Notes: generated from the letters alone by a model not told the origin. A DNA stretch of 38,337 nt from Candidatus Peribacteria bacterium (GCA_041691135.1 JBEPVF010000014.1:1-38337); one strand, 5' to 3'; positions 13,926 through 31,370 are shown, counted from the first letter of the stretch. Numbers and translations are program-made.

Positions 13926-14045
13926 GCCGGCGCTTTCGAGTCGTGTCTTCGTTTTGAAGCCACGCTTGTGTTCCAGTCTGCCTTTCCCTTGGGAAACAAG
14001 CCGACCAGACGAACCTCCAAGCTTTCATTTTTCACCGCCTCTTTT

Positions 14046-14645
14046 GTGTCTAACGGTCTTATTGCCAAGAAGGTCGGCATGTCTCGCATTTTTTTGCCCA
14101 CGGGCGAAGCGATTGCCGTTACCTACCTGGCCGTCGAGCCAAATGTGGTCGTGCGGACCAAGACCAAGGAAAAGGATGGCTATAACGCCGTCGTATTGGG
14201 TATTGGTGCCAAAAAGTGGAAGAGCCGCAAGGGCAAGGAGAATGTCCGCTATGCGCATCAAAAGGAATGGAAGGTCGAATCGCTCGAGGGACTCGAGCCA
14301 GGAAAAGAGGTGACAGCTGACATACTGCCAGCTGAGACCATAGTTACCATCACTGGAACGTCAAAAGGAAAGGGTTTCCAGGGAGTTGTGCGCCGCCACG
14401 GGTTTGCCGGCGGTCCCAAGACCCACGGATCGCACTTTAAGCGTGAGCCGGGATCGGTCGGAATGCGCGCCCAGCCAGGACGTATCTTCAAAGGACACCG
14501 CATGGCCGGACACATGGGTCACGAGACCGTCACGGTCCAGCATCGTCCTATTATGCGCGCCGATCTGGAGAAAGGAGTAATTGCCATCAAAGGCCCGGTT
14601 CCGGGACCGAACGGTTGCACCGTGTTCCTCACCAAAGAATCATGA
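14046..14645 (+). CDS. rplC: 50S ribosomal protein L3
   Basis: GTG start giving MSNGLIAKKVGMS; DGYNAV, SKGKGFQGVVRRHGF, THGSH, REPGSVG and GPVPG. Confidence 0.97.
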   Translation: MSNGLIAKKVGMSRIFLPTGEAIAVTYLAVEPNVVVRTKTKEKDGYNAVVLGIGAKKWKSRKGKENVRYAHQKEWKVESLEGLEPGKEVTADILPAETIVTITGTSKGKGFQGVVRRHGFAGGPKTHGSHFKREPGSVGMRAQPGRIFKGHRMAGHMGHETVTVQHRPIMRADLEKGVIAIKGPVPGPNGCTVFLTKES

Positions 14646-15406
14646 CCATCGATGTGTATTCCGCCACCGGCAGCAAGAACGGAACAGTGGATCTCCCGGA
14701 GACGCTCTTCGGCGCACGTATCAACCATGGCCTGATGCACCAGGCAGTTGTGGCTCAGCAGAGCAATCGCCGCACGGCCATCGCCCACACCAAGAACCGT
14801 GGCGAAGTGCAAGGTTCTACCCGCAAGCTGTACGCCCAAAAGCACACCGGCCGCGCCCGCCGTGGCTCCATCCGCAGTCCGCTGCTCCGTGGGGGCGGCA
14901 AGGCATTCGGTTCGCGCAATAACGAGAATTTCATTAAGGATATGCCAAAATCCATGCGTCGTGCGGCTCTGTTTTCCTGTCTTTCGTGGCAGGCTAAGAA
15001 AGGCGCGATCCTGGGCCTGGAAGAGTATCCAGATACCGTCAAAACCAAGCAGATGCACGGCCTGCTGACCAAGTTGCCAGTCGATATCGGCCGCAAGATC
15101 CTCATCGTACTTCCGGCTCGTCATAAAGGTATTGAATTCTCGACGCGTAATATTCAAGGCATCAAGACGATTACCGCTGCCTACCTCAATCCCGAAGATA
15201 TCCTCAATGCCCGTCACATCATTTTCGTCAGCGATAGCATCAAGAAGGCCGACGAGATCTTTGGCACCAGAGCATCGAAGGTGAAAGTAAAAGAAGAGGT
15301 GGCCAAGGTGGCAACCGAAAAGAAGGTGAAGAAGACGGCTACGAAGAAATCTCCTGCAACCAAAACGAAGAAACCCACTTCTAAATCTGATTCCTCCGCA
15401 TCCTAA
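14642..15406 (+). CDS. rplD: 50S ribosomal protein L4 with Lys-rich C-terminal extension
   Basis: TKNRGEVQGSTRKLYAQKHTGRARRGS.RSP...GGG. ATGA overlap with the rplC stop. Confidence 0.97.
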   Translation: MTIDVYSATGSKNGTVDLPETLFGARINHGLMHQAVVAQQSNRRTAIAHTKNRGEVQGSTRKLYAQKHTGRARRGSIRSPLLRGGGKAFGSRNNENFIKDMPKSMRRAALFSCLSWQAKKGAILGLEEYPDTVKTKQMHGLLTKLPVDIGRKILIVLPARHKGIEFSTRNIQGIKTITAAYLNPEDILNARHIIFVSDSIKKADEIFGTRASKVKVKEEVAKVATEKKVKKTATKKSPATKTKKPTSKSDSSAS

Positions 15407-15711
15407 TGGATCTTTCTCGCGTCATCCTCGGCCCGGTTGTGACGGAAAAGGCAGAGCGCTTGAAGGCAGATGCCACGCATCGGACATACACGCTGCGCGT
15501 AGTGCCGGAGGCGACCAAAATCGATGTCACCAATGCCATCAAGCGATTCTACGATCTGGAAGTCGAGAGCGTGCGTGTGCTCCACACTCGTCCCAAGGTG
15601 CGTCAGATCGGAAAGGGGACTATGGAGAAGCGTCATCGCACCAAAAAGGTAATGGTCACGCTCGTATCCGGGAGTAAGCCGCTCGATCTTACTGCTTTCC
15701 ATACTGCTTAA
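15406..15711 (+). CDS. rplW: 50S ribosomal protein L23
   Basis: PVVTEKA, ATKIDV..A and KKVMVTL; TAATG overlap; gene order. Confidence 0.96.
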   Translation: MDLSRVILGPVVTEKAERLKADATHRTYTLRVVPEATKIDVTNAIKRFYDLEVESVRVLHTRPKVRQIGKGTMEKRHRTKKVMVTLVSGSKPLDLTAFHTA

Positions 15712-15758
15712 TTACCGCGGGCTGAATGCTCGCTCTCCAGATTCCTGATTTATCTCTC

Positions 15759-16604
15759 ATGCCTATCCGCAAGCCTAAACCAACGACTCCCGCACGACGT
15801 CAGATGACGATCGCGGATTTCTCTGGCCTGGCGAAGAAGCGGCCGGAGAAGCGTCTTTCAAGCGGCAAGAAGCAGAATGCCGGACGCAACAGCATGGGAC
15901 GTGTGTCGATCCGTCACCGTGGCGGCGGACACAAGCGGTTGCTGCGCGAAATCGACTTTAAGCAGCTGCACAAGATGAACGTGCCGGGTACGGTCGCATC
16001 CATCGAGTACGATCCGAACCGTTCGGCCCGCATTGCATTGATTCACTACGCCGATGGCGACAAACGCTACATTCTGGCGCCGGAAGGTCTCAAGGCCGGT
16101 GATCAGGTGATGGCTGGCAAGCGCACCAAAGTGAAGCTCGGCAATCGCATGGAAATGCAGTACATCCCGGTGGGTTACCGTGTGTACAATGTGGAACTCA
16201 AACTGGGCAAAGGCGGACAGATCGTCCGTTCAGCCGGTACGTCTGCCACTCTGGTCGGCTTCGACGGCGACTACGCCATCGTCCAATTGCCATCGAGCGA
16301 AATCCGCAAAGTGCGCAAGGAGTGTGCGGCATCCATTGGAACGGTCAGCAATCCTGAGCACAACCTCATCACGATCGGCAAGGCCGGACGCATGCGCTGG
16401 ATGGGTTGGCGTCCCACTGTTCTGGGTAAATCCATGAACGCAGTCGACCACCCGCACGGCGGAGGAGAAGGCCACAGCCCGATCGGTCTGAAGGCACCGA
16501 AGACGCCATGGGGAAAGAAGGCACTCGGCGTGAAGACACGTCGCAAACGCAAGGCAACCGATATGATCGTTCGCCGCCGCACGCGCAAAAAGAAGAAACG
16601 CTAG
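15759..16604 (+). CDS. rplB: 50S ribosomal protein L2
   Basis: RHRGGGHKR, IEYDPNRSARIAL, GKAGR.RW and MNAVDHPHGGGEG. ATG at 15759. Confidence 0.98.
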   Translation: MPIRKPKPTTPARRQMTIADFSGLAKKRPEKRLSSGKKQNAGRNSMGRVSIRHRGGGHKRLLREIDFKQLHKMNVPGTVASIEYDPNRSARIALIHYADGDKRYILAPEGLKAGDQVMAGKRTKVKLGNRMEMQYIPVGYRVYNVELKLGKGGQIVRSAGTSATLVGFDGDYAIVQLPSSEIRKVRKECAASIGTVSNPEHNLITIGKAGRMRWMGWRPTVLGKSMNAVDHPHGGGEGHSPIGLKAPKTPWGKKALGVKTRRKRKATDMIVRRRTRKKKKR

Positions 16605-16697
16605 ATCAGTGATCAATAGGCAGAAGACAGTAGTCAGTCTGCTTACGATCCTCCACTCCTTTGACCACTCACTCCTGACTTCTCTCTACTCACCCTC

Positions 16698-17009
16698 ATG
16701 TCCCGCTCTCTCTCCAAAGGCCCGTACGTCGACCCCAAGCTCTTTAAAAAGGTCATGAAGATGGTCCAGAATTCGGAGAAGAAGATTATCAAGACCTGGG
16801 CGCGCGACAGTGATATCCCACCGGAGTTCGTCGGCTTCACCTTCGCTGTCCACAATGGCAAAGACTTCGTGCCGGTGTATGTCACCGAACAGATGGTAGG
16901 GCACAAACTCGGAGAATTCGCCTGGACCACCAAGTTTAAGGGCCACGGTGGCAAAGCTGCCACCACCGTCGCGCCGGTTGCGTCACCGTCTCCTGGTCCC
17001 AAATCCTGA
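16698..17009 (+). CDS. rpsS: 30S ribosomal protein S19
   Basis: [22 protein letters not shown] and MVGHKLGEF. Confidence 0.98.
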
Positions 17010-17049
17010 TACCTGACGCTTCATTCACGCGTCTCTCTTCCATTCACCC

Positions 17050-17586
17050 ATGAAAGCTTCCGTCACCTCCATCCGCATCGCTCCCAAGAAGGCAAACATC
17101 ATTGCCCGAATGGTCCGCGGCATGCCCGTGCCGGTCGCCATGGAAGCGTTGCGACGCACGCACAAGAAGGCGGCGCGCATCGTTGAGCTTCTCCTTCGCT
17201 CTGCCATCGCCAATGCATCGCACAACGACAAGCAGAGTCCGCAGACGATGGTCATCAAGACAATCGTGGTGAACCAGGGTCAGCCGTTCCATCGCGGTGT
17301 TCCGATGGCTCGCGGCCGTATGCGCCCGATGAAGAAATATCTGAGTCACATCTCGCTCACGCTCGGATTCCCGGGCGATGAAACTCCGACAGGGAAGAAG
17401 GCAAAGGATTCGACGGCACCGAAGAAATCAACGGATAAATCCGGTAAAGCATCTTCACAGTCGGCGAAAACTCCTGTAAAAACGTCACGCTCACCTGCAA
17501 AAGCAGACAAGAAATCCGCGACTGCCACGAGCAAGTCTTCGGACTCCTCGGTTTCGTCGGATTCATCCGCTTCTCCTTCCGCCTAA
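17050..17586 (+). CDS. rplV: 50S ribosomal protein L22 with long Lys/Ser-rich tail
   Basis: RIAPKKA, LLRSAIANA and ARGR....K..SHI; gene order. Confidence 0.97.
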   Translation: MKASVTSIRIAPKKANIIARMVRGMPVPVAMEALRRTHKKAARIVELLLRSAIANASHNDKQSPQTMVIKTIVVNQGQPFHRGVPMARGRMRPMKKYLSHISLTLGFPGDETPTGKKAKDSTAPKKSTDKSGKASSQSAKTPVKTSRSPAKADKKSATATSKSSDSSVSSDSSASPSA

Positions 17587-17589
17587 CAC

Positions 17590-18273
17590 ATGGGTCAAAA
17601 AGTTAACCCCAACGGCTTCCGCATCGGATTCACGCGTACGTGGCCGAGCACCTGGTTTGCGAAGGGCCCGAAGTTCAAGGAGCTCTTGCTCCAAGACGTG
17701 AACATCAGGCGCTATATCCGTGATCGCGTGAAAGAAGGTGGTATCGCCGATATCGAAATCGATCGCAGCAAAAAAGTCACCGTTACCATCCACACCAGCA
17801 AGCCGGGAGTTCTGATCGGCAAGCAGGGTGCCGCTATCGAAGAGATGCGCAAGGATCTCGAGAAGCAGTTCACCGGATCGTTCCTGGTGGAAGTGCAGGA
17901 AGTGCGCAACCCGGATGCCAATGCCGATGTGATCGCCGAAACGATCCAAGGTCAGATTCAGCGCCGCATGCCGTACCGCCGCGCAGTCAAAATGGCCATC
18001 GAAAAAGGCATGCAGGCCGGTGCGATCGGCGTGAAGATCACCGTATCGGGTCGTCTGAACGGCGCAGAAATCGCTCGCGATGACCTATTCAAGCAAGGCA
18101 ACATTCCTTTGCAGACCCTCCGTGCGAACATCCAGTACGCCAAACGCCATGCCCTCACCAAGTTCGGCACGATCGGCGTTCAGGTGTGGGTCTATAAGGG
18201 AATGGTGTTCAAAAAGATACAGCAGGCACAGTCCGCCAGTCTTTCATCCGGTTCCCAGTCGCAGGCCGCGTAA
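17590..18273 (+). CDS. rpsC: 30S ribosomal protein S3
   Basis: [33 protein letters not shown] and PLQTLRA. Confidence 0.98.
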
Positions 18274-18296
18274 CGTAATTCATTTATTCTCCACCC

Positions 18297-18722
18297 ATGT
18301 TAGAACCCAAGAAGCTCAAACACCGGAAGCAACATCGCAATCGCGGTGCCTTCAGTGGTAAGGCATGGCGTGGTGCTGAACTGGCATTCGGATCGATCGG
18401 TCTGAAGGCCGAAAATGGTGGTGAACTGACAGCGCGCCAGATCGAAGCGGCTCGTCGTGCCATGACGCATAGCGTACAACGTGGCGGCAAGATCTGGATC
18501 CGCGTGTTCCCGCACAACCCGGTGACCAGGAAAGCAGCCGAGGTACCGATGGGTTCCGGAAAGGGATCGGTGGAATACTATGCCCTTATCGTGCGTCCGG
18601 GATTGATATTGTTCGAAATGGATGGTCTGAGTCACGAGGCCGCCCGCAAGGCCCTCACGCTCGCCGCACACAAGTTGCCGTTCAAGACGAAAATTGTTTC
18701 TGCCCGTCACCTCGCCGCCTAA
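18297..18722 (+). CDS. rplP: 50S ribosomal protein L16
   Basis: [32 protein letters not shown] and MGSGKG. Confidence 0.98.
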
Positions 18723-18724
18723 TC

Positions 18725-19015
18725 ATGCATGCCACTCTCACTGCCACCGAGCTTCGCAACATGACGGTCGCCGACTTGCACCGCGAGATTGCCGATCACA
18801 TGGCTGCGCTGGGAAAGACCAAGATTGCCGTGCGCTTGAATAAGGAGAAGGACACGGCCAAGGTCAAAAAGACGCGCCAGCTCCTGGCACGGGCCAAGAC
18901 TATTCTGGCCGAGAAACTTATGAACGCAGAGGTCGCCAGCCCGAAGAAAGAGGTCAAAGAGACGTTGAAGAAGTCACCGAAGACCAGTACAGTTCGTGCC
19001 CCCAAGAAATCATGA
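18725..19015 (+). CDS. rpmC: 50S ribosomal protein L29 with C-terminal extension
   Basis: ELRNMT..DL and R..LARAKTILAEK; position between rplP and rpsQ. Confidence 0.9.
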   Translation: MHATLTATELRNMTVADLHREIADHMAALGKTKIAVRLNKEKDTAKVKKTRQLLARAKTILAEKLMNAEVASPKKEVKETLKKSPKTSTVRAPKKS

Positions 19016-19338
19016 GAACCAAGAAAGGGATCATCACATCGGCGAAGATGACAGGCACCGTGACGGTGACCGTCCATCGTTCTGAATTCCATCAGTTGTA
19101 CAAGAAGCGTTTCCGCGTCAGCAAGAAATTCCTGGCCGATAGCGCCGGTATGGATCTGGGCATCGGCGATTCGGTCGTTATTACCGAGTGTCGTCCGATC
19201 AGCAAGAACAAGCATTTCCGTGTCACCGAAATTCTCAAGTCCGCACCGCGCGTGAGTGAGCTCAAGGAAGAGGCGGGTTTGGATGAAGCGCTTGGTAAAA
19301 CTAGCAAAGAAAAATCCGCTGACTCCCCTCAATCATGA
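19012..19338 (+). CDS. rpsQ: 30S ribosomal protein S17
   Basis: G...S.KM..T.TV, H.LYKK and GD.V.I.ECRPISK.K. Confidence 0.97.
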
Positions 19339-19703
19339 TCCAGACTCAATCCATCCTCGACGTGGCTGATAATACGGGTGCCAAGATAGTCATGTGCATC
19401 CGCGTGCTCGGTGGCACGCGACGCCGCTACGCCCGCGTGGGTGATGTGATCGTCGTGGCTGTCAAAGAGGCCGCACCGCGCGGAACGGTGAAGAAGAAAG
19501 CAGTGGAGCGCGCCGTCATCGTCCGTTCGCGCGCCGTTACCCGTCGCAAAGACGGATCGGGCATCCGCTTCGACGACAACGCCTGTGTCATCATCCAGAA
19601 AGACGGCTTGCCCAAGGGCACCCGTGTCTTCGGTCCCGTTGCCCGCGAACTGCGCGCCAAGGGATACCAGAAAATTATCTCCCAAGCTCCTGACGTTCTG
19701 TAA
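19335..19703 (+). CDS. rplN: 50S ribosomal protein L14
   Basis: [21 protein letters not shown] and [13 protein letters not shown]. Confidence 0.98.
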
Positions 19704-19705
19704 TC

Positions 19706-20263
19706 ATGCGTATTCATACGGGCGACACCGTCCTCGTCATCGCCGGCAAAGATAAAGGGAAGACCGGCACCATCATGCGCGTGCTGGACGACCAGAACCG
19801 CGTGATCGTCACGGGGATCAACATGCGTACCAAGCACGTGAAGAAGACCTACCAGCAGGCCGGTCAGAAACTTCACTACGAAGCCAGCATCCATGCCAGC
19901 AATGTCATGATTCTGGATCCGAAGACCAAGAAGCCGGCGCGCATCGGATTTAAAATGACCGAGAAGGGCAAGAAGCGCATCTCCAAAATCAGTGGCGAAG
20001 AGGTCGTCCGTGTCAAACCGGCCAAGACTCCCAAGAAAGAGACGGCCAAGAAGACCGACGAGAGCAAAGCGACCAAGGAGACATCTGCTGAACAGAAATC
20101 AGCGCCAGCCGGTGGCAAAGGCAAGCAGCCGTTCTGGAAAAAGATGGCCTTCGGCGCCGAGGCGATGGAGGGAGCGGAGGTCGATGAAGGCTCACGTATG
20201 ACGCAAGATCATTCCATTCCCGATGAACAAAAGCACGTCCGCAAGGGCGCTCGCGGTTCCTAA
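19706..20263 (+). CDS. rplX: 50S ribosomal protein L24 with long C-terminal extension
   Basis: KOW motif GDTVLVIAGKDKGKTG and EASIHASNV. Confidence 0.97.
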   Translation: MRIHTGDTVLVIAGKDKGKTGTIMRVLDDQNRVIVTGINMRTKHVKKTYQQAGQKLHYEASIHASNVMILDPKTKKPARIGFKMTEKGKKRISKISGEEVVRVKPAKTPKKETAKKTDESKATKETSAEQKSAPAGGKGKQPFWKKMAFGAEAMEGAEVDEGSRMTQDHSIPDEQKHVRKGARGS

Positions 20264-20274
20264 CTCCTGCTACT

Positions 20275-20886
20275 GTGGCTTACGCAACTCTCCATGATCG
20301 GCTCCGAGGTCCCATCGCTCAGAACTTGAAGAAAGGTCTGAAGATCGAGAATACCTTCGCACTTCCGCGCATCGATAAAGTGCTCGTCAACGTTGGTATC
20401 AATAAATCCAAGATGGACAGCAAGGATATGCATGAGTACGTTGCCGATACGTTGGGCAAGATCACCGGTCAAAAGCCGGTCTTCACCATCGCTCGCAAGG
20501 CAATCTCGAACTTCAAGACACGCGAAGGCATCGTTGTCGGCTGCAAAGTGACCCTCCGCGGTCAGCGTGCCGAAGCGTTCCTCGACCGTCTGATCAGTTA
20601 CGTTTTGCCGCGCATCCGCGATTTCCGTGGTCTTTCTTCCAAAATGGATGGCAACGGCAACTACGCAATCGGCCTGCGCGATCACACGATTTTCCCCGAA
20701 GTCCCTCCTGCCGAAGCCGGCAAAATCTTTGGCATGCAGATCCAGATCACGATGAAGGGCGGCAGCGACGAAGCGTCCCGTGCCCTGTTGCGCGAGATGG
20801 GAATGCCCTTCATTCGCAGCAAGAAAGATGCAAAGTCGATTGATCAGACCGCCGCTGTCGGCAATACTCCTCCCTCCGAATCCTAA
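20275..20886 (+). CDS. rplE: 50S ribosomal protein L5
   Basis: PRIDK...N.G, ITGQKP, FKTREG...GCKVTLRG, LPRIRDFRG and DGNGNY. Confidence 0.98.
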   Translation: MAYATLHDRLRGPIAQNLKKGLKIENTFALPRIDKVLVNVGINKSKMDSKDMHEYVADTLGKITGQKPVFTIARKAISNFKTREGIVVGCKVTLRGQRAEAFLDRLISYVLPRIRDFRGLSSKMDGNGNYAIGLRDHTIFPEVPPAEAGKIFGMQIQITMKGGSDEASRALLREMGMPFIRSKKDAKSIDQTAAVGNTPPSES

Positions 20887-20901
20887 TCTTCCTTTTTTAC
20901 C

Positions 20902-21126
20902 ATGGCTCGTCTCGCCCTTAAATTGAAGCAACAACGTGGCATGAACCGCTACATGCGCGACAAGCGTGCCGGTGACAAGACGCCGTTCCCAACGCGCGTC
21001 TACAACCGATGCGGTCTGTGCGGTCGTCGCCATGGTTACATGCGTTTCTTCGGTATCTGCCGCATCTGCTTCCGCGAACTTGCCACCAATGGCGAGATTC
21101 CGGGCATCACCAAATCCTCCTGGTAA
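20902..21126 (+). CDS. rpsN: 30S ribosomal protein S14, zinc-binding (C+) type
   Basis: [25 protein letters not shown]; 74 aa. Confidence 0.97.
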
Positions 21127-21127
21127 C

Positions 21128-21517
21128 ATGACCTACGTTAACGACCCTATCGGCGATCTTCTCACTCGCATGCGCAATGCGCAGCACGCACGTCGAAAGT
21201 CGTGCCGTGCCCCACACTCGAACATCAAGGTGGAGTTGTGCCAATTGCTCAAGCGCGAGGGATGGATCGAAGACATCGAAATCGTGGGTGAAGCACCGAA
21301 GCAGGAAATCGAAGTCACCTTTTCCAAAGAGAAGCCGGTCCTCAGTATCCGCCGCGTGAGTACGCCGGGACGCCGCTACTACACTGGCGCCCAGGAGATC
21401 AAGAAAGTGGAGAACGGTTTCGGCATCGCCGTCATCACGACCAGCCAGGGCCTTATGACCGATCGCGAAGCACGCAAAAAGCATATCGGTGGCGAAATTC
21501 TCTGTACCATCTCCTAA
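21128..21517 (+). CDS. rpsH: 30S ribosomal protein S8
   Basis: DPIGDLLTRMRNA, RVSTPGRR.Y, TSQGLMTD.EAR and GGEILC. True ATG at 21128. Confidence 0.97.
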   Translation: MTYVNDPIGDLLTRMRNAQHARRKSCRAPHSNIKVELCQLLKREGWIEDIEIVGEAPKQEIEVTFSKEKPVLSIRRVSTPGRRYYTGAQEIKKVENGFGIAVITTSQGLMTDREARKKHIGGEILCTIS

Positions 21518-21519
21518 TC

Positions 21520-22071
21520 ATGTCTCGAATTGGTAACAAACCAGTGGCTATTCCCTCCGGCGTCACTATCGACGTAAAGGGTTCCGATATTACCGTCAAA
21601 GGACCCAAGGGTGAGATGAAGATTGTCATCCTTCCCGAAGTCTCGGTGAAGATCGAAGACAACCAGGTGATCGTCTCGCGCCGCGATGACGAAGATGCGT
21701 CGCGCGCCCGACACGGTCTGACGCGCATGCTTATCAACAACATGGCTGTCGGCGTCTCCAGTGGTTTCCAGAAGACCCTCGAGATCATCGGCGTCGGTTA
21801 CAAGGCGCAGATCAAAGGCAAGACGCTCGTGCTCAGCCTGGGTCACTCGCATCCGATCAACGTCGAAATCCCCGATGGCATCGAGATCGCACAAGACGAG
21901 AAGAACAAGAACATTTTGTTCATCCGTGGCATCGACAAGCAACTCGTCGGTCAGATTGCCGCCGAGATCCGCTCGCTCCGACCACCCGAGCCGTACAAGG
22001 GCAAAGGTGTTCGCTACTCCGATGAGCATGTCCGTCGCAAGGCCGGTAAAGCTGCCACCAAGGGCGCATAA
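21520..22071 (+). CDS. rplF: 50S ribosomal protein L6
   Basis: MSRIG.KP, VKGPKG, GVGYKA and RPPEPYKGKGVRY. Confidence 0.98.
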   Translation: MSRIGNKPVAIPSGVTIDVKGSDITVKGPKGEMKIVILPEVSVKIEDNQVIVSRRDDEDASRARHGLTRMLINNMAVGVSSGFQKTLEIIGVGYKAQIKGKTLVLSLGHSHPINVEIPDGIEIAQDEKNKNILFIRGIDKQLVGQIAAEIRSLRPPEPYKGKGVRYSDEHVRRKAGKAATKGA

Positions 22072-22083
22072 CCATTCTCCTCC

Positions 22084-22428: not shown

Positions 22429-22434
22429 TCTCTC

Positions 22435-22457: not shown

Positions 22458-22488
22458 TATTACCACTCTTCTCTCTACAATCTCTCCC

Positions 22489-23169: not shown

Positions 23170-23688
23170 ATGTCCAAACTTGCTTTGCTCATCATTGCCC
23201 AGGAAGGTTTCCAAGATATCGAATTGAACGGCACGCGCACGGGGCTGGAAGAAGCAGGATTTACAGTCGAATTGGCTAGTAAAAGTCGCGGCTTGTGCGT
23301 CGGTAAATATGAAGCCGAGGAACAGGCAACCGTTGCCATCGCGGATGTCGATGTGTCGCGGTACGACCGCATTGGATTTATCGGCGGACCGGGAGCACAT
23401 GCGCTTAAGGATGATCCGCAGGCCCACCGCATCGCGCGCGAAACGCTGGCAGTCGGCAAAATTTTGGGGGCTATTTGCATCGCCCCGACCATTCTGGCCG
23501 AAGCGGGTGTTCTTAAGGGAAAGCGGGCAACCGTGTGGAATCAGGGCGGGGAAGAGGGGATCTTCCTGATCGAGCGCGGGGCGGACTATACGGGCGAATC
23601 CGTGACAGTGGATGGGCACATTGTGACAGCCGACGGGCCGGAGAGCGCGGAGGAGTTCGGACAGGTTTTTGCTGCGACAAAGGCGTAG
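23170..23688 (+). CDS. DJ-1/PfpI family protein
   Basis: GFQDIE, YD...FIGG.GA, nucleophile elbow AICIAP, GVLKGKRAT and VDG.IVTADGP. ATG at 23170 lies 6 nt after TGcTATGAT. Confidence 0.93.
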   Translation: MSKLALLIIAQEGFQDIELNGTRTGLEEAGFTVELASKSRGLCVGKYEAEEQATVAIADVDVSRYDRIGFIGGPGAHALKDDPQAHRIARETLAVGKILGAICIAPTILAEAGVLKGKRATVWNQGGEEGIFLIERGADYTGESVTVDGHIVTADGPESAEEFGQVFAATKA

Positions 23689-23734
23689 AAATTCCCTTTA
23701 CCATTGCTTTTTTCCCCTTTACCATAGCGCTCCA

Positions 23735-24181
23735 ATGCTTCACACCCTCAAGCCAGCACCGGGTTCTCGTTTCAAGCGCAAGCGCGTCGCTCGCGGCAAC
23801 AGTGCCGGTGGTGGTACGACTGCGGGAAAAGGAACAAAAGGCCAGGACGCTCGTTCCGGCAAGGGAAAGCGCAACCCGGGATTCGAAGGAGGCCAGGTGC
23901 CATTGGTCCGTCGTCAGCCAAAACTGGGTGGTTTCACGCGTCCGCGCCGTGTCACCTACGAGCCGCTTAATTTGGATACGCTGGAAAAACTGCTCGATGC
24001 CGGCAGTTACGATGTAAATGCCCTGCGTGTGAAAAAAATCATCCGCTCCAAGAATCCAGTGAAGCTTCTGTCACGCGGTTCCATCACCAAGAAATTCGAT
24101 CTCACTGTCAACGCTGCCAGCAAGTCAGCCAAGGAAGCGATGAAGAAGGCAGGTGGGACGCTGACCATTGTGAAGCAGTAG
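23735..24181 (+). CDS. rplO: 50S ribosomal protein L15
   Basis: LKPAPGS...RKRV.RG...G.G.T.GKG.KGQ.ARSG and GFEGGQ.PL.RR.PK. ATG at 23735. Confidence 0.97.
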   Translation: MLHTLKPAPGSRFKRKRVARGNSAGGGTTAGKGTKGQDARSGKGKRNPGFEGGQVPLVRRQPKLGGFTRPRRVTYEPLNLDTLEKLLDAGSYDVNALRVKKIIRSKNPVKLLSRGSITKKFDLTVNAASKSAKEAMKKAGGTLTIVKQ

Positions 24182-24327
24182 TGTTTCGAGACGCCTTTTG
24201 CCGTGTGGTTATGTATGCCATCTGAGAGCTACGGGCTCCTTAGTAATACACGTGTTGAATGTTTTGTATGTGCGTATCATTTCCCTTTGACCTGTACCGG
24301 TAAACCTATAACAATAGCCTCCGCTCT

Positions 24328-25611: not shown

Positions 25612-25628
25612 TTTCCAACACCCCTCAC

Positions 25629-26435
25629 ATGCGTACCCAGGCGATCGCTCTGCTCATGGCCGTCTGCGGCATCGTCGTGATTTACTTTTTGGCGCAGCGT
25701 TTCATTCATCCGCCGGGAAGCATTTCCCGGCCGTTTCAAACGTTAAGCGGCAGCACAGTCAGTTCACTGCCGGGTGCATTTGCCGACATTGCCAGCGATG
25801 CTTCGTCTGAGACATCGACGGAACAGGAGTCATCGGCTGCTCCTTCCACATTACTCAGTGATGTATCTGCCCAGTTTGGACAAATGAATCTGCCCTCCGG
25901 TGCAAAATACAAATCTGAGGCGACATATATCTTTGAGCCGCCTGCTACCGAAACATCGTGGCCTGCATTGATGGTGCGAGTCGATGGCACCCTTACCTTT
26001 CAAGGCAAAGAAATAACAGTTCATGGTTTTTTCGAACCTTCCAGCAATGTAACGGCCGATCAATTGCAATCGCTCTTCCCCGGAGCGAAACGCATGGAAG
26101 CCAATACGGATTTCGGCATGGGAAGCGAATTGGATTTGTTCCAGAATCCTACGACCGATGTCGACCCGTTCACGACACAGCAGGGTCTGCAGGGGCGAAA
26201 GTTCATCATGGATTGGGGCAGCGGCATCTCGTCTGATATCGCGTCGTATCTTTTGCCTCAAGTACCGTTGCAGCAGTTCAACCGGGTGCTCATCGATTTC
26301 GTCGACGTCTGGCCGGGTACGGATTTGCCTTCCACGCTCAACACCAAGTTCATCAATGATCTGACGGCGTCTAACGATACGCATGCCCAGCCGTACAGCA
26401 TGCTCGATCAGCTCATACAGTCTCTCCAATTTTAA
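25629..26435 (+). CDS. hypothetical membrane-anchored or exported protein
   Basis: Likely ATG at 25629 (MRTQAIALLMAVCGIVVIYFLA), followed by a Ser/Thr-rich linker and an acidic globular region; fills the secY-adk gap. Confidence 0.75.
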   Translation: MRTQAIALLMAVCGIVVIYFLAQRFIHPPGSISRPFQTLSGSTVSSLPGAFADIASDASSETSTEQESSAAPSTLLSDVSAQFGQMNLPSGAKYKSEATYIFEPPATETSWPALMVRVDGTLTFQGKEITVHGFFEPSSNVTADQLQSLFPGAKRMEANTDFGMGSELDLFQNPTTDVDPFTTQQGLQGRKFIMDWGSGISSDIASYLLPQVPLQQFNRVLIDFVDVWPGTDLPSTLNTKFINDLTASNDTHAQPYSMLDQLIQSLQF

Positions 26436-26449
26436 TTCTTCTTTATCGT

Positions 26450-27013
26450 ATGGATCTCATCTTCTTCGGTATTCAAGGCTCGGGCAAAGGTACGCAGGCC
26501 AAAAAATTAGCAGCCGAATTTGGCTACGATATTTTTGAAGCCGGCGGCGAATTGCGCAAAATCGCGGCGTCCGGTTCGGAGCTTGGCAATCTGGTGAAGA
26601 CCTATGTCGATGCCGGCAATCTGGTGCCGCACGAGATCATCATGCAAGTCGTGAAGGAAGCCATCCTCAGTCGCCCCAAAGATCAGAAGATTCTGTTCGA
26701 TGGCATTCCGCGCGATACGAATCAGATGAAGGATTTCGATGACATCATGCAAAGTGCCGTGCGGGATTTCGTCGTCATCTATTTTGATCTTGATCGCCAG
26801 ACGGCGATTGAGCGGCTCAAAGGCCGGGCATCGATCGAAGGGCGTGCCGACGATGCCGATGAGCAGGCGGTTCTCCGTCGCTTCCAGATTTTTGAGGAAA
26901 AGACGAAGCCGGTGTTTGATGAGTATAAGAAGCAGGGGAAAGTGAAAGCAGAGATCAAGGCTGATAGATCGGTGGAGGAAATTTATGAGGAGTTGAAGAA
27001 GGTTGTTTCGTAG
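26450..27013 (+). CDS. adk: adenylate kinase (short form lacking the LID domain)
   Basis: P-loop GIQGSGKGTQA, G.LVP, FDGIPR and GRADD; lies after secY. Confidence 0.93.
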   Translation: MDLIFFGIQGSGKGTQAKKLAAEFGYDIFEAGGELRKIAASGSELGNLVKTYVDAGNLVPHEIIMQVVKEAILSRPKDQKILFDGIPRDTNQMKDFDDIMQSAVRDFVVIYFDLDRQTAIERLKGRASIEGRADDADEQAVLRRFQIFEEKTKPVFDEYKKQGKVKAEIKADRSVEEIYEELKKVVS

Positions 27014-27032
27014 AGCGCCATGCCTTGGCGCG
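27012..27032 (+). repeat. dispersed palindromic repeat, copy 1 (AGAGCGCCATGCCTTGGCGCG)
   Basis: 20 of 21 nt identical to 38217-38237; forms a GCGCCA/TGGCGC hairpin; GTAG at 27010-27013 overlaps its start. Confidence 0.75.
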
Positions 27033-27077
27033 ATTCTAAGATGTTTGCCTGCACCAACTTCTCCAGTCACCAGTGGT

Positions 27078-27114
27078 GTTCTTTTTCTTGTCTCCCCGCG
27101 ACAAGAAAAAGAAC
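27078..27114. repeat. perfect 15-bp inverted repeat GTTCTTTTTCTTGTC-N7-GACAAGAAAAAGAAC
   Basis: Seen directly in the adk-map intergenic region. Confidence 0.8.
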
Positions 27115-27301
27115 CAAAAAGAAACGCACCGCTTATCCCCACCACATAGGCGGAGGGGGTCATTGTCTGGAATAGCGAGCAGGCGAAGAGGTTGGGCGGC
27201 TTAGGGCCGCCTGGGAGTAGCGGGCAAGAAAGTTTGAGAGAGGAAAGAATGTCACTCCCCTGAATCCCTTGAATCCCCTCACCTCGGCTGGAATACAAGA
27301 A

Positions 27302-27329
27302 TTGCCTTCAGCAGTCGAACGCGTACACT
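27302..27329 (+). promoter_or_regulatory. map promoter TTGCCT-16-TACACT, 7 nt before the ATG (leaderless)
   Basis: -35 at 27302-27307, -10 at 27324-27329, ATG at 27337. Confidence 0.6.
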
Positions 27330-27336
27330 TTGTGCA

Positions 27337-28086
27337 ATGTCTCCCTTTCAGCTCTTCACCGCCGATGAGATTGCCTCGCTTCGAAAAGGGGGAAAAATTT
27401 TGCGTGATTGTCTGCAGGAAACGGCCAAGCATGTGCGACCGGGCATCACGACGAGGGAATTGGATGCGATTGCCGAGGAATTCGTGCTGTCGCATGCGGG
27501 TGCGCGGCCGGCGTTTAAGGGGTACCGCGGATTTCCCGCCACACTCTGTACGTCCATCAACGAAGAAGCCGTGCATGCCATTCCGTCTGATCGTGTTTTG
27601 GAAGACGGCGATATCGTCTCGCTCGATGGCGGTGTGATTTTCGACGATCTGTACACCGACGCGTGTCTGACAGTACCGGTGGGAACTATCTCGTCAGAAA
27701 CGCAGGCATTTCTCGCTGCTACGGAGGAGGCATTGCGTTTGGTAGTCAAAATGCTTCATGCCGGTGTTCGGGTGGGGGATATCTCCCACACCGTTCAATC
27801 TTTTATTGAAGGGAAAGGATATAAGTGCCTGCGGGCCCTCACCGGTCATGGACTCGGCAAGACACTCCACCAGTTCCCGGATGTGCCGAATGTAGGCAAG
27901 GCTGGCACAGGCGCAATCATCCCCGCCGGTACCATCCTGGCCATCGAGCCGATCACGTCCATGGGATCCGACGAAATTCGTGAGGCTGACGATGGCTGGA
28001 CCCTCTCGACCCGCGATGGCGCCCTGGCGGCGCATTTTGAACACACACTGCTTATCAATGAGGCGGGATGCGAGATATTGGCATAA
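27337..28086 (+). CDS. map: methionine aminopeptidase type I
   Basis: PAFKGY.GFPA.LCTSINE...H.IP, DGDIVSLD.G, GHG.G...H..P.VPN, AIEP and AAHFEHT. Confidence 0.98.
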   Translation: MSPFQLFTADEIASLRKGGKILRDCLQETAKHVRPGITTRELDAIAEEFVLSHAGARPAFKGYRGFPATLCTSINEEAVHAIPSDRVLEDGDIVSLDGGVIFDDLYTDACLTVPVGTISSETQAFLAATEEALRLVVKMLHAGVRVGDISHTVQSFIEGKGYKCLRALTGHGLGKTLHQFPDVPNVGKAGTGAIIPAGTILAIEPITSMGSDEIREADDGWTLSTRDGALAAHFEHTLLINEAGCEILA

Positions 28087-28229
28087 TGAAAGAACAGAGG
28101 TCCGATGCCTCTTCAATCACCCCGGTCACCCGTTTCTGGCTCTTTAGATGTATTTAATACCTGATAAAACATTTTTAATAAGTTGCAAGTCCATTTTCTT
28201 TTCCACATCCAAAATACAGGGCTTATTGC

Positions 28230-28258
28230 TTGAGAGCAGGCACTTCTCTCTGTAGGAT
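28230..28258 (+). promoter_or_regulatory. promoter for the infA-rpmJ-alpha cluster (TTGAGA-17-TAGGAT)
   Basis: -35 at 28230-28235 and -10 at 28253-28258, about 30 nt before the infA GTG. Confidence 0.6.
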
Positions 28259-28288
28259 TCGTCGGCTTTTGACCCCGCACTTTTCTCT

Positions 28289-28597
28289 GTGTCTAAGGAT
28301 GTAATCGAACTCGTCGGCATTGTTATTGAGAGTTATCCCAATGCCACGTTTCGCGTCCGAGTGACCAGTGACCAAGCCAAGGATCACGAGCTGCTTTGCC
28401 ATCTGGCAGGGCGCATGCGCGTTCATCGCGTACGCATCCTGCCAGGCGACAAGGTGAAACTCGAGATGACACCATACGATCTGAACAAAGGCCGCATCAC
28501 CTACCGGTTCTCGGCAGGCGGCCCCGGTCCCGGCAGCACGCCTCCGCCAAGTGTTCCCGCTGTTGCCCCCATCGATTCTCCCGCCACTCCTTCCTGA
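28289..28597 (+). CDS. infA: translation initiation factor IF-1 with Pro-rich C-terminal extension
   Basis: [42 protein letters not shown]; GTG start. Confidence 0.97.
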
Positions 28598-28603
28598 AGT
28601 CCC

Positions 28604-28732
28604 ATGAAAGTCCGTCCATCCTGCAAACCCATCTGCTCCAAGTGTCGTCGCGTCCTTCGTCGCAACGGCAAGGGTAAAGTGATCCGCCGCATCGTCTGCG
28701 AAAATCCCAAGCACAAGCAGCGTCAGGGTTGA
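28604..28732 (+). CDS. rpmJ: 50S ribosomal protein L36 (42 aa, zinc-ribbon type)
   Basis: Translated by hand: [42 protein letters not shown]. Not in the ORF track. Confidence 0.97.
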
Positions 28733-28760
28733 TTCAATCCGTACTTTTCTTTTTCTTCTC

Positions 28761-29141
28761 ATGATTCGTATCTCAGGCGTCGTCCTACCGGGTAACAAAC
28801 GCATCGAAATCGCTCTTACGGCGATCAAGGGCATCGGCCGTCCCATGTCCAAGCGCATCCTCAATGAACTGAATGTAAGTCTGGACATGAAAGCTGATGC
28901 ATTGACCGAAGCCGATCAGGCCCGTCTGCGCTCCCGTGTCGAAAAGGAACTCACCGAAGGAGAGCTCGCCCGCAAGATATCGCTCGACGTGAAGCGCCTG
29001 CAGGACATCGGTACGTGGCGCGGTTACCGTCATCGCCGCAAATTGCCGGTTCGCGGCCAGACATCCCGCCGCAATGCACGTACCAAGCGTGGTAAGAAGC
29101 GCACAGGCACATCCGGTCGTACGGTTCTGACCAAGACATAA
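28761..29141 (+). CDS. rpsM: 30S ribosomal protein S13
   Basis: RISGV.LP..KR..IALT.I.GIG, RG.RHRR.LPVRGQ and NART. Confidence 0.98.
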   Translation: MIRISGVVLPGNKRIEIALTAIKGIGRPMSKRILNELNVSLDMKADALTEADQARLRSRVEKELTEGELARKISLDVKRLQDIGTWRGYRHRRKLPVRGQTSRRNARTKRGKKRTGTSGRTVLTKT

Positions 29142-29176
29142 TTCTGCATTTTCAATTCTCAATTCTCAATTAATTC

Positions 29177-29614
29177 ATGGCTGATACTCCTGAACTCTCC
29201 GTCGATACGACCGCCATCAAGGCTCCCGAGCCCAAGGCCGGTGCCCGTAAAAAGAAGATCAAGCGTAATCTTCCCAAAGCACGTGTCTGCATCAAGGCTG
29301 GGGAGAACAACACTATCGTCACATTTACGGATCTGGAGGGAAACGTGATTGGCTGGAGCAGCTCAGGCTCGGCCGGCTTCAAAGGAACACGCAAGTCGAC
29401 GCCGTACGCCGCCAAAGTTGCCGCCGAATCCGCGGCTATCAAAGTGAAGCCTTTCGGTATCGAATCGGTGAGCGTGGAAGTAAAGGGTCTCGGACCAGGA
29501 CGCGAACAGGCGTTGCGTGGACTCCAGAGCAGCGGCCTGAACCTGGATGCCATTGTCGATACAACCCCGATTGCGCACGGCGGATGTCGTCCTGCAGGTC
29601 GACGTCGCGTGTAA
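29177..29614 (+). CDS. rpsK: 30S ribosomal protein S11
   Basis: NNTIVT.TD..GN...WSS.G..GFKG.RKSTPYAA, GPGRE.A.R and D.TPI.H.GCRP. Confidence 0.97.
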   Translation: MADTPELSVDTTAIKAPEPKAGARKKKIKRNLPKARVCIKAGENNTIVTFTDLEGNVIGWSSSGSAGFKGTRKSTPYAAKVAAESAAIKVKPFGIESVSVEVKGLGPGREQALRGLQSSGLNLDAIVDTTPIAHGGCRPAGRRRV

Positions 29615-29659
29615 TTCTCCATCTGTCATCTCACCTTTTATTCACTCTCTCGTCTCTCC

Positions 29660-30274
29660 ATGAAATACACTGGTCCCAAAGCGAAGCGTTGCCGACGACA
29701 GGGGATGAACCTGTACGGTACCGATAAGTACGACAAGATCCTTCAGCGCAAGCCGCAGGGTCCGGGCAAAAGTCCGCGTGCGCAGACGAGCAAGCCGTCC
29801 GAATTCGGCAACCAACTGCGCGAGAAGCAGAAAGCGCGCGATATGTACGGTCTGTCCGAGAGTCAGTTCCATCGCTTGTACCGAGAGGCGTCCCGCGTGA
29901 GCGGTCAGACGGGTGAGGCTCTTAAGCAACTGCTTGAGCGTCGTCTGGACAATGTCATTTATCGCAGCGGCTTTGCGATGACCCGCATGCAGTCGCGCCA
30001 ATTTGTAAATCACGGTCTGTTCCTGGTCGACGGCGTCCGCGTCACCACTCCCAGTTTCCAGGTGAAGCCGGGTCAGGTGATTACGGTTCGTCCGCGCACC
30101 AAGAACTCAGCCGTTTTCGGTCCTATCCAGGCGGCCCACGAGAAATATAATGCCCCGGGCTGGCTCAAAATGGATCGCGTTGCCATGCGCGTGGAGGTGG
30201 CGGCTCTTCCCGCACCGGATGACGCCGAGAAGGCGATCGACACCCGGCAGATCATTGAGTTCTATTCGCGCTAA
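29660..30274 (+). CDS. rpsD: 30S ribosomal protein S4
   Basis: YTGPK.K.CRR.G, QLREKQK, LERRLDNVIYR.GFA, RQ.V.HG and IIEFYSR. Confidence 0.98.
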   Translation: MKYTGPKAKRCRRQGMNLYGTDKYDKILQRKPQGPGKSPRAQTSKPSEFGNQLREKQKARDMYGLSESQFHRLYREASRVSGQTGEALKQLLERRLDNVIYRSGFAMTRMQSRQFVNHGLFLVDGVRVTTPSFQVKPGQVITVRPRTKNSAVFGPIQAAHEKYNAPGWLKMDRVAMRVEVAALPAPDDAEKAIDTRQIIEFYSR

Positions 30275-30311
30275 TCGCGCTCCTTCTTCCTCTCCTTTTC
30301 TCCTTCTCGTT

Positions 30312-31307
30312 ATGCATATCATTCAGGAAGAAATCGGTCTCCCAACCTTTACGGTCACCCCGGTGAAGAAGGGCGACGATACTCATGCCATTTTCTCCAT
30401 CGCCCCGCTGCCTCCAGGCTATGCGATGACGTTGGGCAATGGTTTGCGTCGTGTGCTGCTCTCCAGCTTGCCTGGTGCTGCGGTGACTTCGGTGCGCATC
30501 AATGGTGTCCAGCACGAATACACGACCATCAAGGGCGTGCGCGAATCGGTTCTCGACTTCACACTCAATCTCAAGGGCCTCAAGATCCGCAAGCATCGCA
30601 AGGAGCCCGAAGTGATCACCCTGGAAGCCAAGGGTCCGGCCCGCATCACAGCGAAGGATCTGAAGGTGACGTCCGATATCGAGATTCTCAATCCGGAACT
30701 CGAATTGTTGACGCTCGAGAAGGGTGCATCAGTCGATATGCAACTGACGATCGAGAAGGGCGTGGGATACATCTCCGCTTCCGAACGCAATAAGAAGCAG
30801 AACGAGCCGGGTCTGATCTACATCGACGCGATCTACTCGCCGGTGATGAAAGTCCGCTTCGATGTCGAAGCCGCTCGTGTCGGTCAGCGCACCGATCTGG
30901 AAAAACTGAGCTTGAACGTGAAGACCAATGGTTCGCTCACGGCTGAGGAGGCGATGCAGTTCGCGTCGCAGCTGCTGCAGAGTTATTACGGTTACTTCGG
31001 ATCGGATCAGAAGATCGTGGAGCCCGAGTTCATCGCTGATTTCTCCCGCTCGGCTGCCGCCCACGTGGACGACAATACGCACACGCCGGTCAAAGAGACC
31101 TACACGCCGATCGAAATCCTCAACTTCAGCCCACGCACGCTCAACGCACTCATCAATGCCGGCGTCGGTTCCATCGAACAGCTCACCAAGTGCACGGAAG
31201 CCACGCTCAGCAACTTCCGCGGTTTCGGTGCCAAGGCGCTCGACGAAGTGAAGGCCACCCTCGGTGAACGCGGACTCAAGCTCGCTTCCGACACCATCGA
31301 GAGTTGA
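30312..31307 (+). CDS. rpoA: RNA polymerase subunit alpha
   Basis: PL..GY..TLGN.LRRVLLSSLPGAAVT, HEY.TI.GV.E, IDAIYSPV, RVGQRTD and alpha-CTD SPRT.NAL...FG.KAL.EV. ATG at 30312. Confidence 0.98.
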   Translation: MHIIQEEIGLPTFTVTPVKKGDDTHAIFSIAPLPPGYAMTLGNGLRRVLLSSLPGAAVTSVRINGVQHEYTTIKGVRESVLDFTLNLKGLKIRKHRKEPEVITLEAKGPARITAKDLKVTSDIEILNPELELLTLEKGASVDMQLTIEKGVGYISASERNKKQNEPGLIYIDAIYSPVMKVRFDVEAARVGQRTDLEKLSLNVKTNGSLTAEEAMQFASQLLQSYYGYFGSDQKIVEPEFIADFSRSAAAHVDDNTHTPVKETYTPIEILNFSPRTLNALINAGVGSIEQLTKCTEATLSNFRGFGAKALDEVKATLGERGLKLASDTIES

Positions 31308-31370
31308 TGCGCTCAGGAATTGACAAAACTGCCCTAACCATAGACTATTCTCGCCCTCTGAATCTCCCCC

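Follow-up and report, generated by a model that had tools for sequence, protein, structure and literature searches.

Pyrimidine-rich leaders, putative leaderless genes and a drifting 16S rRNA tail suggest start selection without Shine-Dalgarno pairing in Peribacteraceae

The str/S10-spc-alpha ribosomal gene cluster of a Candidatus Peribacteria bacterium runs from rplC to rplQ at positions 14030 to 31370 of the stretch of DNA analysed here (GCA_041691135.1 JBEPVF010000014.1:1-38337; 38,337 nucleotides, hereafter the window). Its start codons are mostly preceded by G-poor pyrimidine tracts and not by Shine-Dalgarno (SD) sites, and the genome as a whole shows a similar start context. On balance, we favour the reading that ribosomes of this lineage no longer select starts through pairing of SD and anti-SD sequences, but work on leaderless mRNAs or on C/U-rich leaders in which the tract serves as the landing site. 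The window is contig C14 of a 1.74 Mb genome in 35 contigs with ~53% G+C (G000), from an uncultured, groundwater-type bacterium of the Peribacteraceae (Peregrinibacteria, candidate phyla radiation, CPR). The nearest rpsC loci, at 66-93% protein identity, were all from Candidatus Peribacteria, Peribacteraceae or Peregrinibacteria. Among sequencing runs, one of DNA, possibly from the source sample, contains the stretch, and no RNA run was found to contain it.

Start regions in the cluster, the genome and related genomes

Among the 28 genes that our gene finder called between 14030 and 31400, to which all cluster figures refer, the last 20 bases before the start codon (-20 to -1) had a mean pyrimidine (Y) fraction of 0.738 and a mean G fraction of 0.091, whereas all 20-mers of the cluster strand averaged Y 0.492. 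Y reached at least 0.75 in 15 of the 28 leaders, compared with 4.0% of all 20-mers from the same strand and region, and 12 leaders held no more than one G. None of the 28 genes carried GGAG, GAGG or AGGA at -20 to -4, while 10.9% of random genome 17-mers contain such a core. An earlier note on this DNA had described the cluster as free of SD sites; this description stands, and extends to the genome-wide counts below, in which SD words are not enriched either. The twelve pyrimidine tracts that it quoted are all present, each abutting the start codon named, and its gene names (rpsS, rplV, rplP, rpsN, rplR, rpsE, infA, rpsM, rpsD, rpoA and rplQ) were confirmed by NCBIfam. The cluster leaders are also more pyrimidine-rich than those at other starts of the genome (Y 0.738 vs 0.630), and 0 of 10000 random 28-gene samples reached the cluster mean. 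Many tracts are at the same time the coding end of the upstream gene, which is Ser/Pro-rich there (L22, L4 and S17 tails).

For the genome-wide analysis, genes were called with a dicodon log-odds score and greedy choice, giving 1251 genes that cover 78% of the genome, so that short genes will have been missed. Three sets of starts were compared: 1243 genes with iteratively refined starts; 193 unambiguous starts, defined without a start model as the first ATG with no rival within 25 codons; and the starts of 80 loci around rpsC, anchored by homology on the window's proteins. The latter two sets served as controls for start-model bias. At -20 to -1, refined starts showed Y 0.63 and G 0.16, compared with ~51% Y and 24% G at -80 to -41, and the unambiguous starts showed Y 0.62 and G 0.14, compared with Y 0.50 and G 0.24. 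No purine peak preceded the 193 unambiguous starts. The enrichment is limited to approximately -25 to -1, with Y back to ~0.50-0.53 and G at 0.22-0.23 between -100 and -61, and Y at 0.47 downstream of stops. The C/T excess is thus not the sense-strand intergenic background, the explanation which the earlier note had named as fatal to its own. Leaders lying within upstream coding sequence (73 overlapping genes) had Y 0.61 and G 0.176, compared with 0.49 and 0.274 for coding sequence in general. Depletion was not confined to G, as A also fell to 0.21 from 0.25 upstream. Runs of at least six pyrimidines occurred in 40-51% of leaders but in only 13.9% of random 22-mers, and predicted folding was weaker at starts, with a mean minimum free energy of -4.2 for 40-nt windows vs -7.8 inside genes.

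SD cores, by comparison, were found before 8% of starts genome-wide (12% at the control offset) and before 9% of the unambiguous starts (13%). GGAG, AGGA, GAGG and GGAGG, as well as GGAAA and GGAAAU, the words cognate to the actual 16S tail of this genome, were all equally rare or rarer at -22 to -3 than at -62 to -43; across 1242 genes, GGAGG occurred 9 vs 19 times and GGAAA 8 vs 30 times. A motif search by expectation maximisation that was seeded with an SD ended in a 3.8-bit pyrimidine motif, and each of four seeds led to the same generic kind of motif. The homology-anchored starts gave a similar picture for 32 Peribacteria loci (355 starts; Y 0.68, C 0.40, G 0.10, SD core 2%), while six loci from other Peregrinibacteria, Gracilibacteria and Patescibacteria (61 starts) were A-rich (A 0.47, G 0.06) and likewise had an SD core in 2%. 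In 42 non-CPR loci (408 starts), the positive control, SD cores appeared in 91%, so the method detects SDs where they are present. The leaders were not conserved in sequence between species; their composition alone was.

Promoter-like words were among the enriched leader 6-mers, which included the -10-box words TACACT, TATACT, TATAAT and GCTATA. Across 1246 genes, TAnnnT started at -12 in 195, at -14 in 91, at -13 in 65 and at -15 in 57, with ~20 per position elsewhere. The 195 genes showed T at -35 and -34 (0.56 and 0.46), G at -14 (0.44), C at -1 (0.64) and A at +1 (0.92), which is the layout of a promoter with TTG at -35 to -33, TG at -15/-14, TAnnnT at -12 to -7, C at -1 and A at +1. Among unambiguous starts, 31% had TAnnnT at -15 to -12 vs 5% at the control offset. 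Approximately 32% of genes therefore appear to carry a promoter so fixed that transcription should begin at the AUG, and because this distance is fixed, their mRNAs are predicted to be leaderless. Such transcripts would come mostly from the first genes of transcription units; the signature was found in 13% of operon-internal genes vs 33-39% in the remaining classes. A leaderless start is impossible for operon-internal genes, among them those of the ribosomal cluster.

A second, sequence-specific element was found among the remaining enriched words. TTCCCC was the most enriched leader 6-mer (47 vs 2), beginning at -15, -14 and -13 in 14, 15 and 7 genes, respectively. TTCCC occurred at -16 to -12 in 67 of 1243 genes (~5%; 7 at the control offset) and in 11 of the 193 unambiguous starts (0 at the control offset). 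This UUCCC box, which occupies -15 to -10, is placed 9-10 bases before the AUG and peaks at the same place in all five Peribacteraceae genomes examined (G000, G132, G063, G036 and G068), whatever the variant of their 16S rRNA tail. Operon-internal genes carried it as often (8 of 175) as the others, which argues for a role in translation rather than transcription. The 181 box-bearing genes of the five genomes showed an enrichment of -10-like hexamers at -37 to -28, from which leaders of ~20 bases are predicted.

For the relatives, the same pipeline was run on ~400 kb per genome for four family members and on 200 kb per genome for representatives of four further families of the class. The family members differ in their 16S tails, with canonical CCUCC in G063 (same genus) and G036, UCUCC in G068 and CUUCC in G132, but all had Y 0.64-0.65, G 0.13-0.18, SD cores before 5-7% of starts (8-16% in the control) and the same enriched words, with TAnnnT in 25-32% vs 2-6%. 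Relatives that retain the canonical tail are therefore also without SDs. The four outgroups lacked SDs as well and were G-poor (G 0.04-0.09), with U-rich leaders in G185 (family f4) and G239 (f26) and A-rich leaders in G296 (f27; A 0.43) and G171 (f22; A 0.48). G depletion is thus common to all nine genomes of the class that were examined (G 0.04-0.18). Since the outgroups also do without SDs, SD-independent initiation seems to characterise the class as a whole, and the loss of SD use seems both to have preceded the tail change and to be wider than it. The C/U flavour seems to belong to the G+C-richer Peribacteraceae and some neighbours. One of the outgroups, G171 (L188-L197; 25% G+C), yielded only four genes in 200 kb when TGA was taken as a stop and 147 when it was read through, which points to a TGA-recoded relative within the same class.

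The 16S rRNA tail, its trailer and the 30S platform

The earlier note had proposed checking whether the 16S rRNA still ends in CCUCC. It does not: the single 16S gene, on contig C9, ends in ...GGAUGGAACAUUUCCUUA when aligned with Infernal to the consensus ...gGAUcACCUCCUUu, and the tail reads ...GGAACAUUUCCUUA against the Rfam consensus ...gGAUcACCUCCUUu. In the G000 tail CAUUUCCUUA, UUUCC stands at the place of CCUCC, the first two C of the anti-SD core being replaced by U. Across the family, a pattern search allowing up to three mismatches found 119 tails in 117 of 151 Peribacteraceae genomes, with a hand tally of UCUCC 46, CUUCC 34, UUUCC 21, CCUCC 16, ACUCC 1 and one further variant 1. The site thus drifts as YYUCC and is canonical in 16 of 119 tails. 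The genus to which the window belongs is itself mixed, with a canonical tail in G063 and UUUCC in G000, G110 and G148. In a class-wide sample, in which 100 of 201 genomes were matched, most other families kept CCUCC, with UCUCC in families f22 and f30 and CUUCC in part of f26. Families f8 and f11 gave no match to the pattern at up to three mismatches in 22 genomes each, and their tails may be more diverged or unassembled. In one genome, G025, there are two 16S ends whose cores differ (CUUCC and UUUCC, on contigs C11 and C14), which may represent two operons or a mixed bin.

Directly after the tail (...YYUCCUUA), 114 of the 151 family genomes searched have CCAGGGAR, the sole conserved part of the trailer. 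Its final R (trailer base +8) covaries with the second Y of the tail: although the search pattern permitted either purine with either pyrimidine, 112 of 116 rows fit, with C:G in 59, U:A in 53 and four misfits (G011, G081, G082 and G115; hand tally), counts that are inflated by related sequences. Together the two segments form a six-pair hairpin, YUCCUU/AGGGAR, whose loop of three bases contains the annotated 3' end of the 16S rRNA. Across 21 aligned sequences, 96.8% of cells were paired, compared with 51-72% when the partner was slid. One compensated switch falls within genus g1 (G063 vs G000, G110, G148 and G131), and compensated versions occur in families f26 and f17, with CUUCC accompanied by GGAAA and CCUCC by GGAGA in f26. 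The covariation suggests that the old anti-SD is now constrained only by this precursor rRNA hairpin with the first trailer bases, a constraint under which it would drift by compensated C/U changes. The hairpin probably acts in rRNA maturation. There is a parallel in the SD-blind Flavobacterium johnsoniae, for which the relevant passages of PMC13000453 report that ablation of the anti-SD impairs 16S maturation.

Two other structures were considered for this region. A self-hairpin of the tail (GGAA/UUCC), although preferred by RNAfold, was unsupported, as its GGAA side is invariant while the Y side varies. A leader-trailer stem for CCAGGGAA was likewise rejected, since no complement was found in 300 bases of the 5' leader. 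A second hairpin, CCAGG...CCUGG, follows just behind the first in most genomes (G000:C9:2850-2958, minus strand; 20 family genomes, L208-L227).

The altered tail offers no new pairing partner for the leaders. Mean duplex energy with the real 16S tail was -3.61 kcal/mol for leaders, no better than at the control positions (-3.86 at -62 to -43; -4.02 in coding sequence), and with a canonical tail the corresponding values were -3.94, -4.63 and -5.17 kcal/mol. Recognition of the leader by the tail was therefore rejected. Pairing with another accessible purine run of the 16S rRNA was rejected too, as the only GGGGAA sits in the paired h41 hairpin. The earlier note had suggested initiation on an unstructured C/U tract, bound by bS1 or paired with an altered, purine-rich rRNA segment. 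The unstructured, localised tract agrees with the weak folding at starts, but the pairing half of the suggestion finds no support in these energies, and the change to UUUCC has made the tail more pyrimidine-rich, not more purine-rich.

Of the ribosomal proteins that the earlier note had singled out for inspection, bS1 is encoded as a multi-domain protein, a 475-aa open reading frame (ORF) on contig C3 with four S1 domains that matches rpsA models over ~350 residues (E 1e-79 to 1e-91). bS18 is present, as is bS6, whereas the bS21 candidate falls short of its cut-off (24.7 vs 28.95 bits); UUCCCC stands in the leader of its gene. No YbeY was detected in the genome, which is 92% complete. uS11 (29177-29614, plus strand) ends in ...PIAHGGCRP, with G at the place of a conserved Asn, and its HGG stands where the relevant part of preprint 10.64898/2026.08.26.747336 places N119. 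The same preprint, in the passages concerned, links a change of this Asn in class Gracilibacteria with loss of YbeY. The apparent absence of YbeY, the uS11 change and the marginal bS21 fit a remodelled platform.

Start selection and its alternatives

Taken together, these observations would be explained by two modes of initiation. In the leaderless mode, a promoter of the sigma-70 type, set at constant spacing from the AUG, would place the transcript's first base at the start codon, so that the mRNA is read from its AUG. In the leadered mode, the remaining genes, including operon-internal ones, would present a G-poor, C/U-rich last 20 bases unable to fold on themselves. This single-stranded pyrimidine tract would be where the ribosome lands, with bS1 or other platform proteins holding it on the 30S platform and no rRNA pairing involved. 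bS1 prefers pyrimidine-rich single strands, and its binding to the unstructured tract, or that of the platform, is a plausible basis for the leadered mode.

Several points weigh against this proposal. The starts were predicted by an incomplete gene finder, and the start model could reinforce the pattern. The depletion of A alongside G means that avoidance of structure alone fails to explain the choice of pyrimidines, and a loose single-strand binder by itself does not predict a sharply positioned, sequence-specific UUCCC box. Several cluster genes (map, rplD, rpsQ) have weak tracts, and sister families of the class do without SDs using A/U-rich leaders. Since two G-U wobbles still let the UUUCC tail pair with GGAGG, pairing is not abolished by the tail change alone. 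Finally, the bS1 protein scores below the curated cut-offs of all bS1 models.

It is possible, though we think it unlikely, that there is no positive signal at all, and that the tract is a residue of G avoidance for unfolded starts in genomes of 52-63% G+C, with the AUG, its context and coupling choosing the start. G depletion is indeed the sole feature common to the nine genomes of the class, composition but not sequence is conserved between species, predicted folding is weakest at the start, and many junctions are coupled (TAATC-ATG or overlaps). However, A is also depleted in the Peribacteraceae, the UUCCC box has a specific sequence and a sharp position, conserved in five genomes, and the tracts of the highly expressed ribosomal genes are stronger than the random gene samples ever reached.

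The box itself invites a more specific idea, which we rate as rather doubtful: that UUCCC(C) is a new, sequence-specific ribosome-binding element that has replaced the SD in Peribacteraceae, read either by a platform protein or by pairing with GGGAR. If the latter were true, it would be an inverted SD, with the purines on the ribosome and the pyrimidines on the message. Such pairing of UUCCC with purine-rich rRNA, for which the trailer GGGAR is the best candidate if it were kept in the mature 16S rRNA, is in our judgement improbable. It would account for the conservation of CCAGGGAR behind the tail, and GGGAA is the exact complement of UUCCC while GGGAG pairs through one wobble; the fixed spacing of the box is SD-like, and the 3'-end maturation nuclease YbeY was not found. 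Yet the preferred fourth C (36 of 53 TTCCC at -15 to -13 are TTCCCC) would face an A, and the box showed no covariation with tail or trailer variant in the five family genomes. Genomes with GGGAG have no CUCCC peak, the counts at -15, -14 and -13 being 1, 1 and 1 in G063, 2, 2 and 4 in G036, and 3, 0 and 1 in G068. GGGAR is, moreover, already engaged in the covariation-supported hairpin with the tail; SD-like trailers pair with the anti-SD in sister families that have other leader styles, which fits a processing helix; and most leaders have no such box, showing just a generic C/U-richness.

A role of the tracts as transcription signals, whether promoter, initially transcribed region or terminator remains, appears very improbable. 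Genes with the UUCCC box do have -10-like hexamers at -37 to -28 (71 hits in 181 genes vs ~18 per 100 others), which places the box 4-6 bases behind the predicted 5' end of the transcript, but tracts and box are anchored to the start codon and are as common in operon-internal genes (gaps of up to 30 bases) and inside upstream coding sequence, including most of the ribosomal cluster. An artefact of mis-called starts or of local strand composition, conceivable because starts were predicted and the start model was trained on the same data, was tested and can be set aside almost entirely, as the homology-anchored starts (by a procedure that recovers SDs in 91% of 408 non-CPR starts) and the model-free unambiguous starts agree, the NCBIfam alignments of most cluster proteins start within residues 1-5, and pyrimidines make up 49% of the region's sense strand.

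The proposed landing of ribosomes on leaderless mRNAs or C/U-rich leaders shares features with several known systems. In leaderless-rich bacteria such as Actinobacteria and Deinococcus-Thermus, a quarter to a third of genes have a -10 box at a fixed ~7 bases from the start codon, and these lineages keep a canonical anti-SD with SDs on their leadered genes. The Peribacteraceae resemble them in the fixed -10 distance, but their leadered genes carry pyrimidine tracts. bS1-dependent initiation on pyrimidine- or U-rich leaders is familiar from E. coli enhancers and from cyanobacterial and chloroplast mRNAs, where it concerns individual mRNAs beside a working SD system. A single-stranded, pyrimidine-rich leader without SD pairing and the presence of a bS1 gene are common ground; unlike in those systems, such initiation would here be the general rule for all leadered genes and would come with a C-rich box at fixed spacing. 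Bacteroidia have A-rich leaders, in which respect the A-depleted leaders of G000 differ.

The SD-blind ribosomes of Bacteroidia are nevertheless a close comparison. According to the relevant passages of PMC9976891 and PMC13000453, Bacteroidia do not use SDs genome-wide and have leaders of low structure. The likeness lies in the absence of SD use across the genome, the little leader structure and an anti-SD kept for another reason. As described in those passages, however, Bacteroidia have a mostly intact CCUCC that is sequestered by bS21, bS18 and bS6, and an rpsU with a strong SD, whereas in G000 the core itself is mutated and the marginal bS21 has a UUCCCC leader.

The finding is partly known. 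In the relevant entry of a PLoS One 2024 paper (PMC10783764), Ca. Peribacter riflensis, of the same family, has the same two features, namely few SDs and a 16S tail without CCUCC. That entry is one table row for one species and holds nothing on leader composition, motif, leaderless share, tail variation or trailer covariation. G000 fits class iv of this paper, as the relevant part defines it (SD-scarce, non-CCUCC), with its thermodynamic criterion reproduced only approximately. The PeerJ 2016 description of Ca. Peribacter riflensis makes no mention of 'Shine', 'start codon' or 'promoter', and the relevant passages of a study in RNA (2022, PMC9297842) state that Peregrinibacteria are often without bS21 and bL33, and treat anti-SD motif loss for Parcubacteria alone. 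A literature search that left outside subscription journals and supplements, of which the latter may list further tail variants, yielded no account of C/U leaders, of the UUCCC box, of the share of leaderless genes or of compensated changes in tail and trailer, nor of any leaderless genes in the candidate phyla radiation.

SD-free start choice is understood in some depth for Bacteroidia only, and a large uncultured lineage seems to solve the problem differently. Its anti-SD would have been caught mid-drift, held in place by a precursor rRNA hairpin alone, and the compensated changes in tail and trailer would amount to a natural experiment on the purpose of the anti-SD once its binding to mRNA is lost. 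In practice, gene callers that score SD-like sites can be expected to misplace starts in Peribacteraceae genomes, and heterologous expression of Peribacteria genes will probably need foreign leaders.

Leaders and genes of the window

NCBIfam confirmed the identity of the cluster genes, in the order rplC, rplD, rplW, rplB, rpsS, rplV, rpsC, rplP, rpmC, rpsQ, rplN, rplX, rplE, rpsN (type Z), rpsH, rplF, rplR, rpsE, rplO, secY, adk, map, infA, rpmJ, rpsM, rpsK, rpsD, rpoA and rplQ, with rplM and rpsI downstream. The leaders described below all lie on the plus strand. In the first part of the cluster, rplC (GTG at 14046) has a leader at 14026-14045 with Y 0.85 and one G. Within the coding end of rplC lies the weak leader of rplD (14622-14641, start 14642; Y 0.55), and within that of rplD the leader of rplW (15386-15405, start 15406; Y 0.75). 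The leader of rplB (15739-15758, start 15759) has Y 0.70, and Y is 0.85 for both rpsS (16678-16697, start 16698; no G) and rplV (17030-17049, start 17050; one G). The rpsC leader (17570-17589, start 17590; Y 0.80) falls within the Ser/Pro-rich coding end of rplV. Next come rplP (18277-18296, start 18297; Y 0.75, no G), rpmC (18705-18724, start 18725; Y 0.70) and the weak leader of rpsQ (18992-19011, start 19012; Y 0.55).

The rplN leader (19315-19334, start 19335; Y 0.75) has CUCCCCU at -14. Leaders of rplX (19686-19705, start 19706; Y 0.65) and rplE (20255-20274, GTG at 20275; Y 0.70) follow, and before rpsN type Z (20882-20901, start 20902) a tract ending in ACC abuts the ATG. Y is 0.60 for rpsH (21108-21127, start 21128), 0.75 for rplF (21500-21519, start 21520), 0.70 for rplR (22064-22083, start 22084) and 0.85, with no G, for rpsE (22469-22488, start 22489). 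The rplO leader (23715-23734, start 23735; Y 0.70) has a UUUUUUCCCCUUU run just upstream. The secY leader (24308-24327, start 24328) has Y 0.60 and that of adk (26430-26449, start 26450) Y 0.80, while map (27317-27336, start 27337) is the clearest exception in the cluster, with Y 0.50 and five G.

In the last part, infA (28269-28288, GTG at 28289) has Y 0.80, and the leader of rpmJ (28584-28603, start 28604), within the infA coding end, is pyrimidine-rich by eye. The leaders of rpsM (28741-28760, start 28761; Y 0.90), rpsK (29157-29176, start 29177; Y 0.70, no G) and rpsD (29640-29659, start 29660; Y 0.85) precede a 30-base C/U tract before rpoA (30282-30311, start 30312), the last 20 bases of which have Y 0.95. 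For rplQ (31351-31370, start 31371) Y is 0.80. Just past the cluster, the leaders of rplM (31806-31825, start 31826) and rpsI (32234-32253, start 32254) are C/U-rich.

A recurrent junction of stop, two bases and start, TAATC-ATG, joins rplP to rpmC (18717-18727), rplN to rplX (19698-19708) and rpsH to rplF (21512-21522), among others, and similar AATC-ATG junctions occur at rpsQ, rplN and rplD. The arrangement suggests translational coupling.

Elsewhere in the window, a 705-aa gene (1404-3521, plus strand) has UCCCC at -13 of its leader (1384-1403, plus strand). It matched no NCBIfam family at E 0.001 and so is not EF-G. The 405-aa gene directly before rplC (12586-13803, plus strand) has only a faint leucine-rich-repeat match, and rpsJ is not present upstream of rplC within the window. 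A gene of the DJ-1/PfpI family (23170-23688, plus strand; TIGR01382, E 5e-28) lies between rpsE and rplO, occupying the usual place of rpmD (uL30), a protein absent from CPR genomes according to the relevant part of PMC9297842. A 23S rRNA gene was not found in the 35 contigs of G000, although the 16S gene is complete. Several ribosomal proteins have C-terminal extensions (17350-17586, 14642-15406 and 31371-31829); L22 (178 aa) ends in a Ser/Lys-rich tail, and L24 is 185 aa long. L4 and L17 match the 'sunset domain variant' models of NCBIfam, and there is a weak resemblance between the last 80 residues of bS1 (L082:973-1212, minus strand) and the sunset portion of the L17 variant (E 0.0034).

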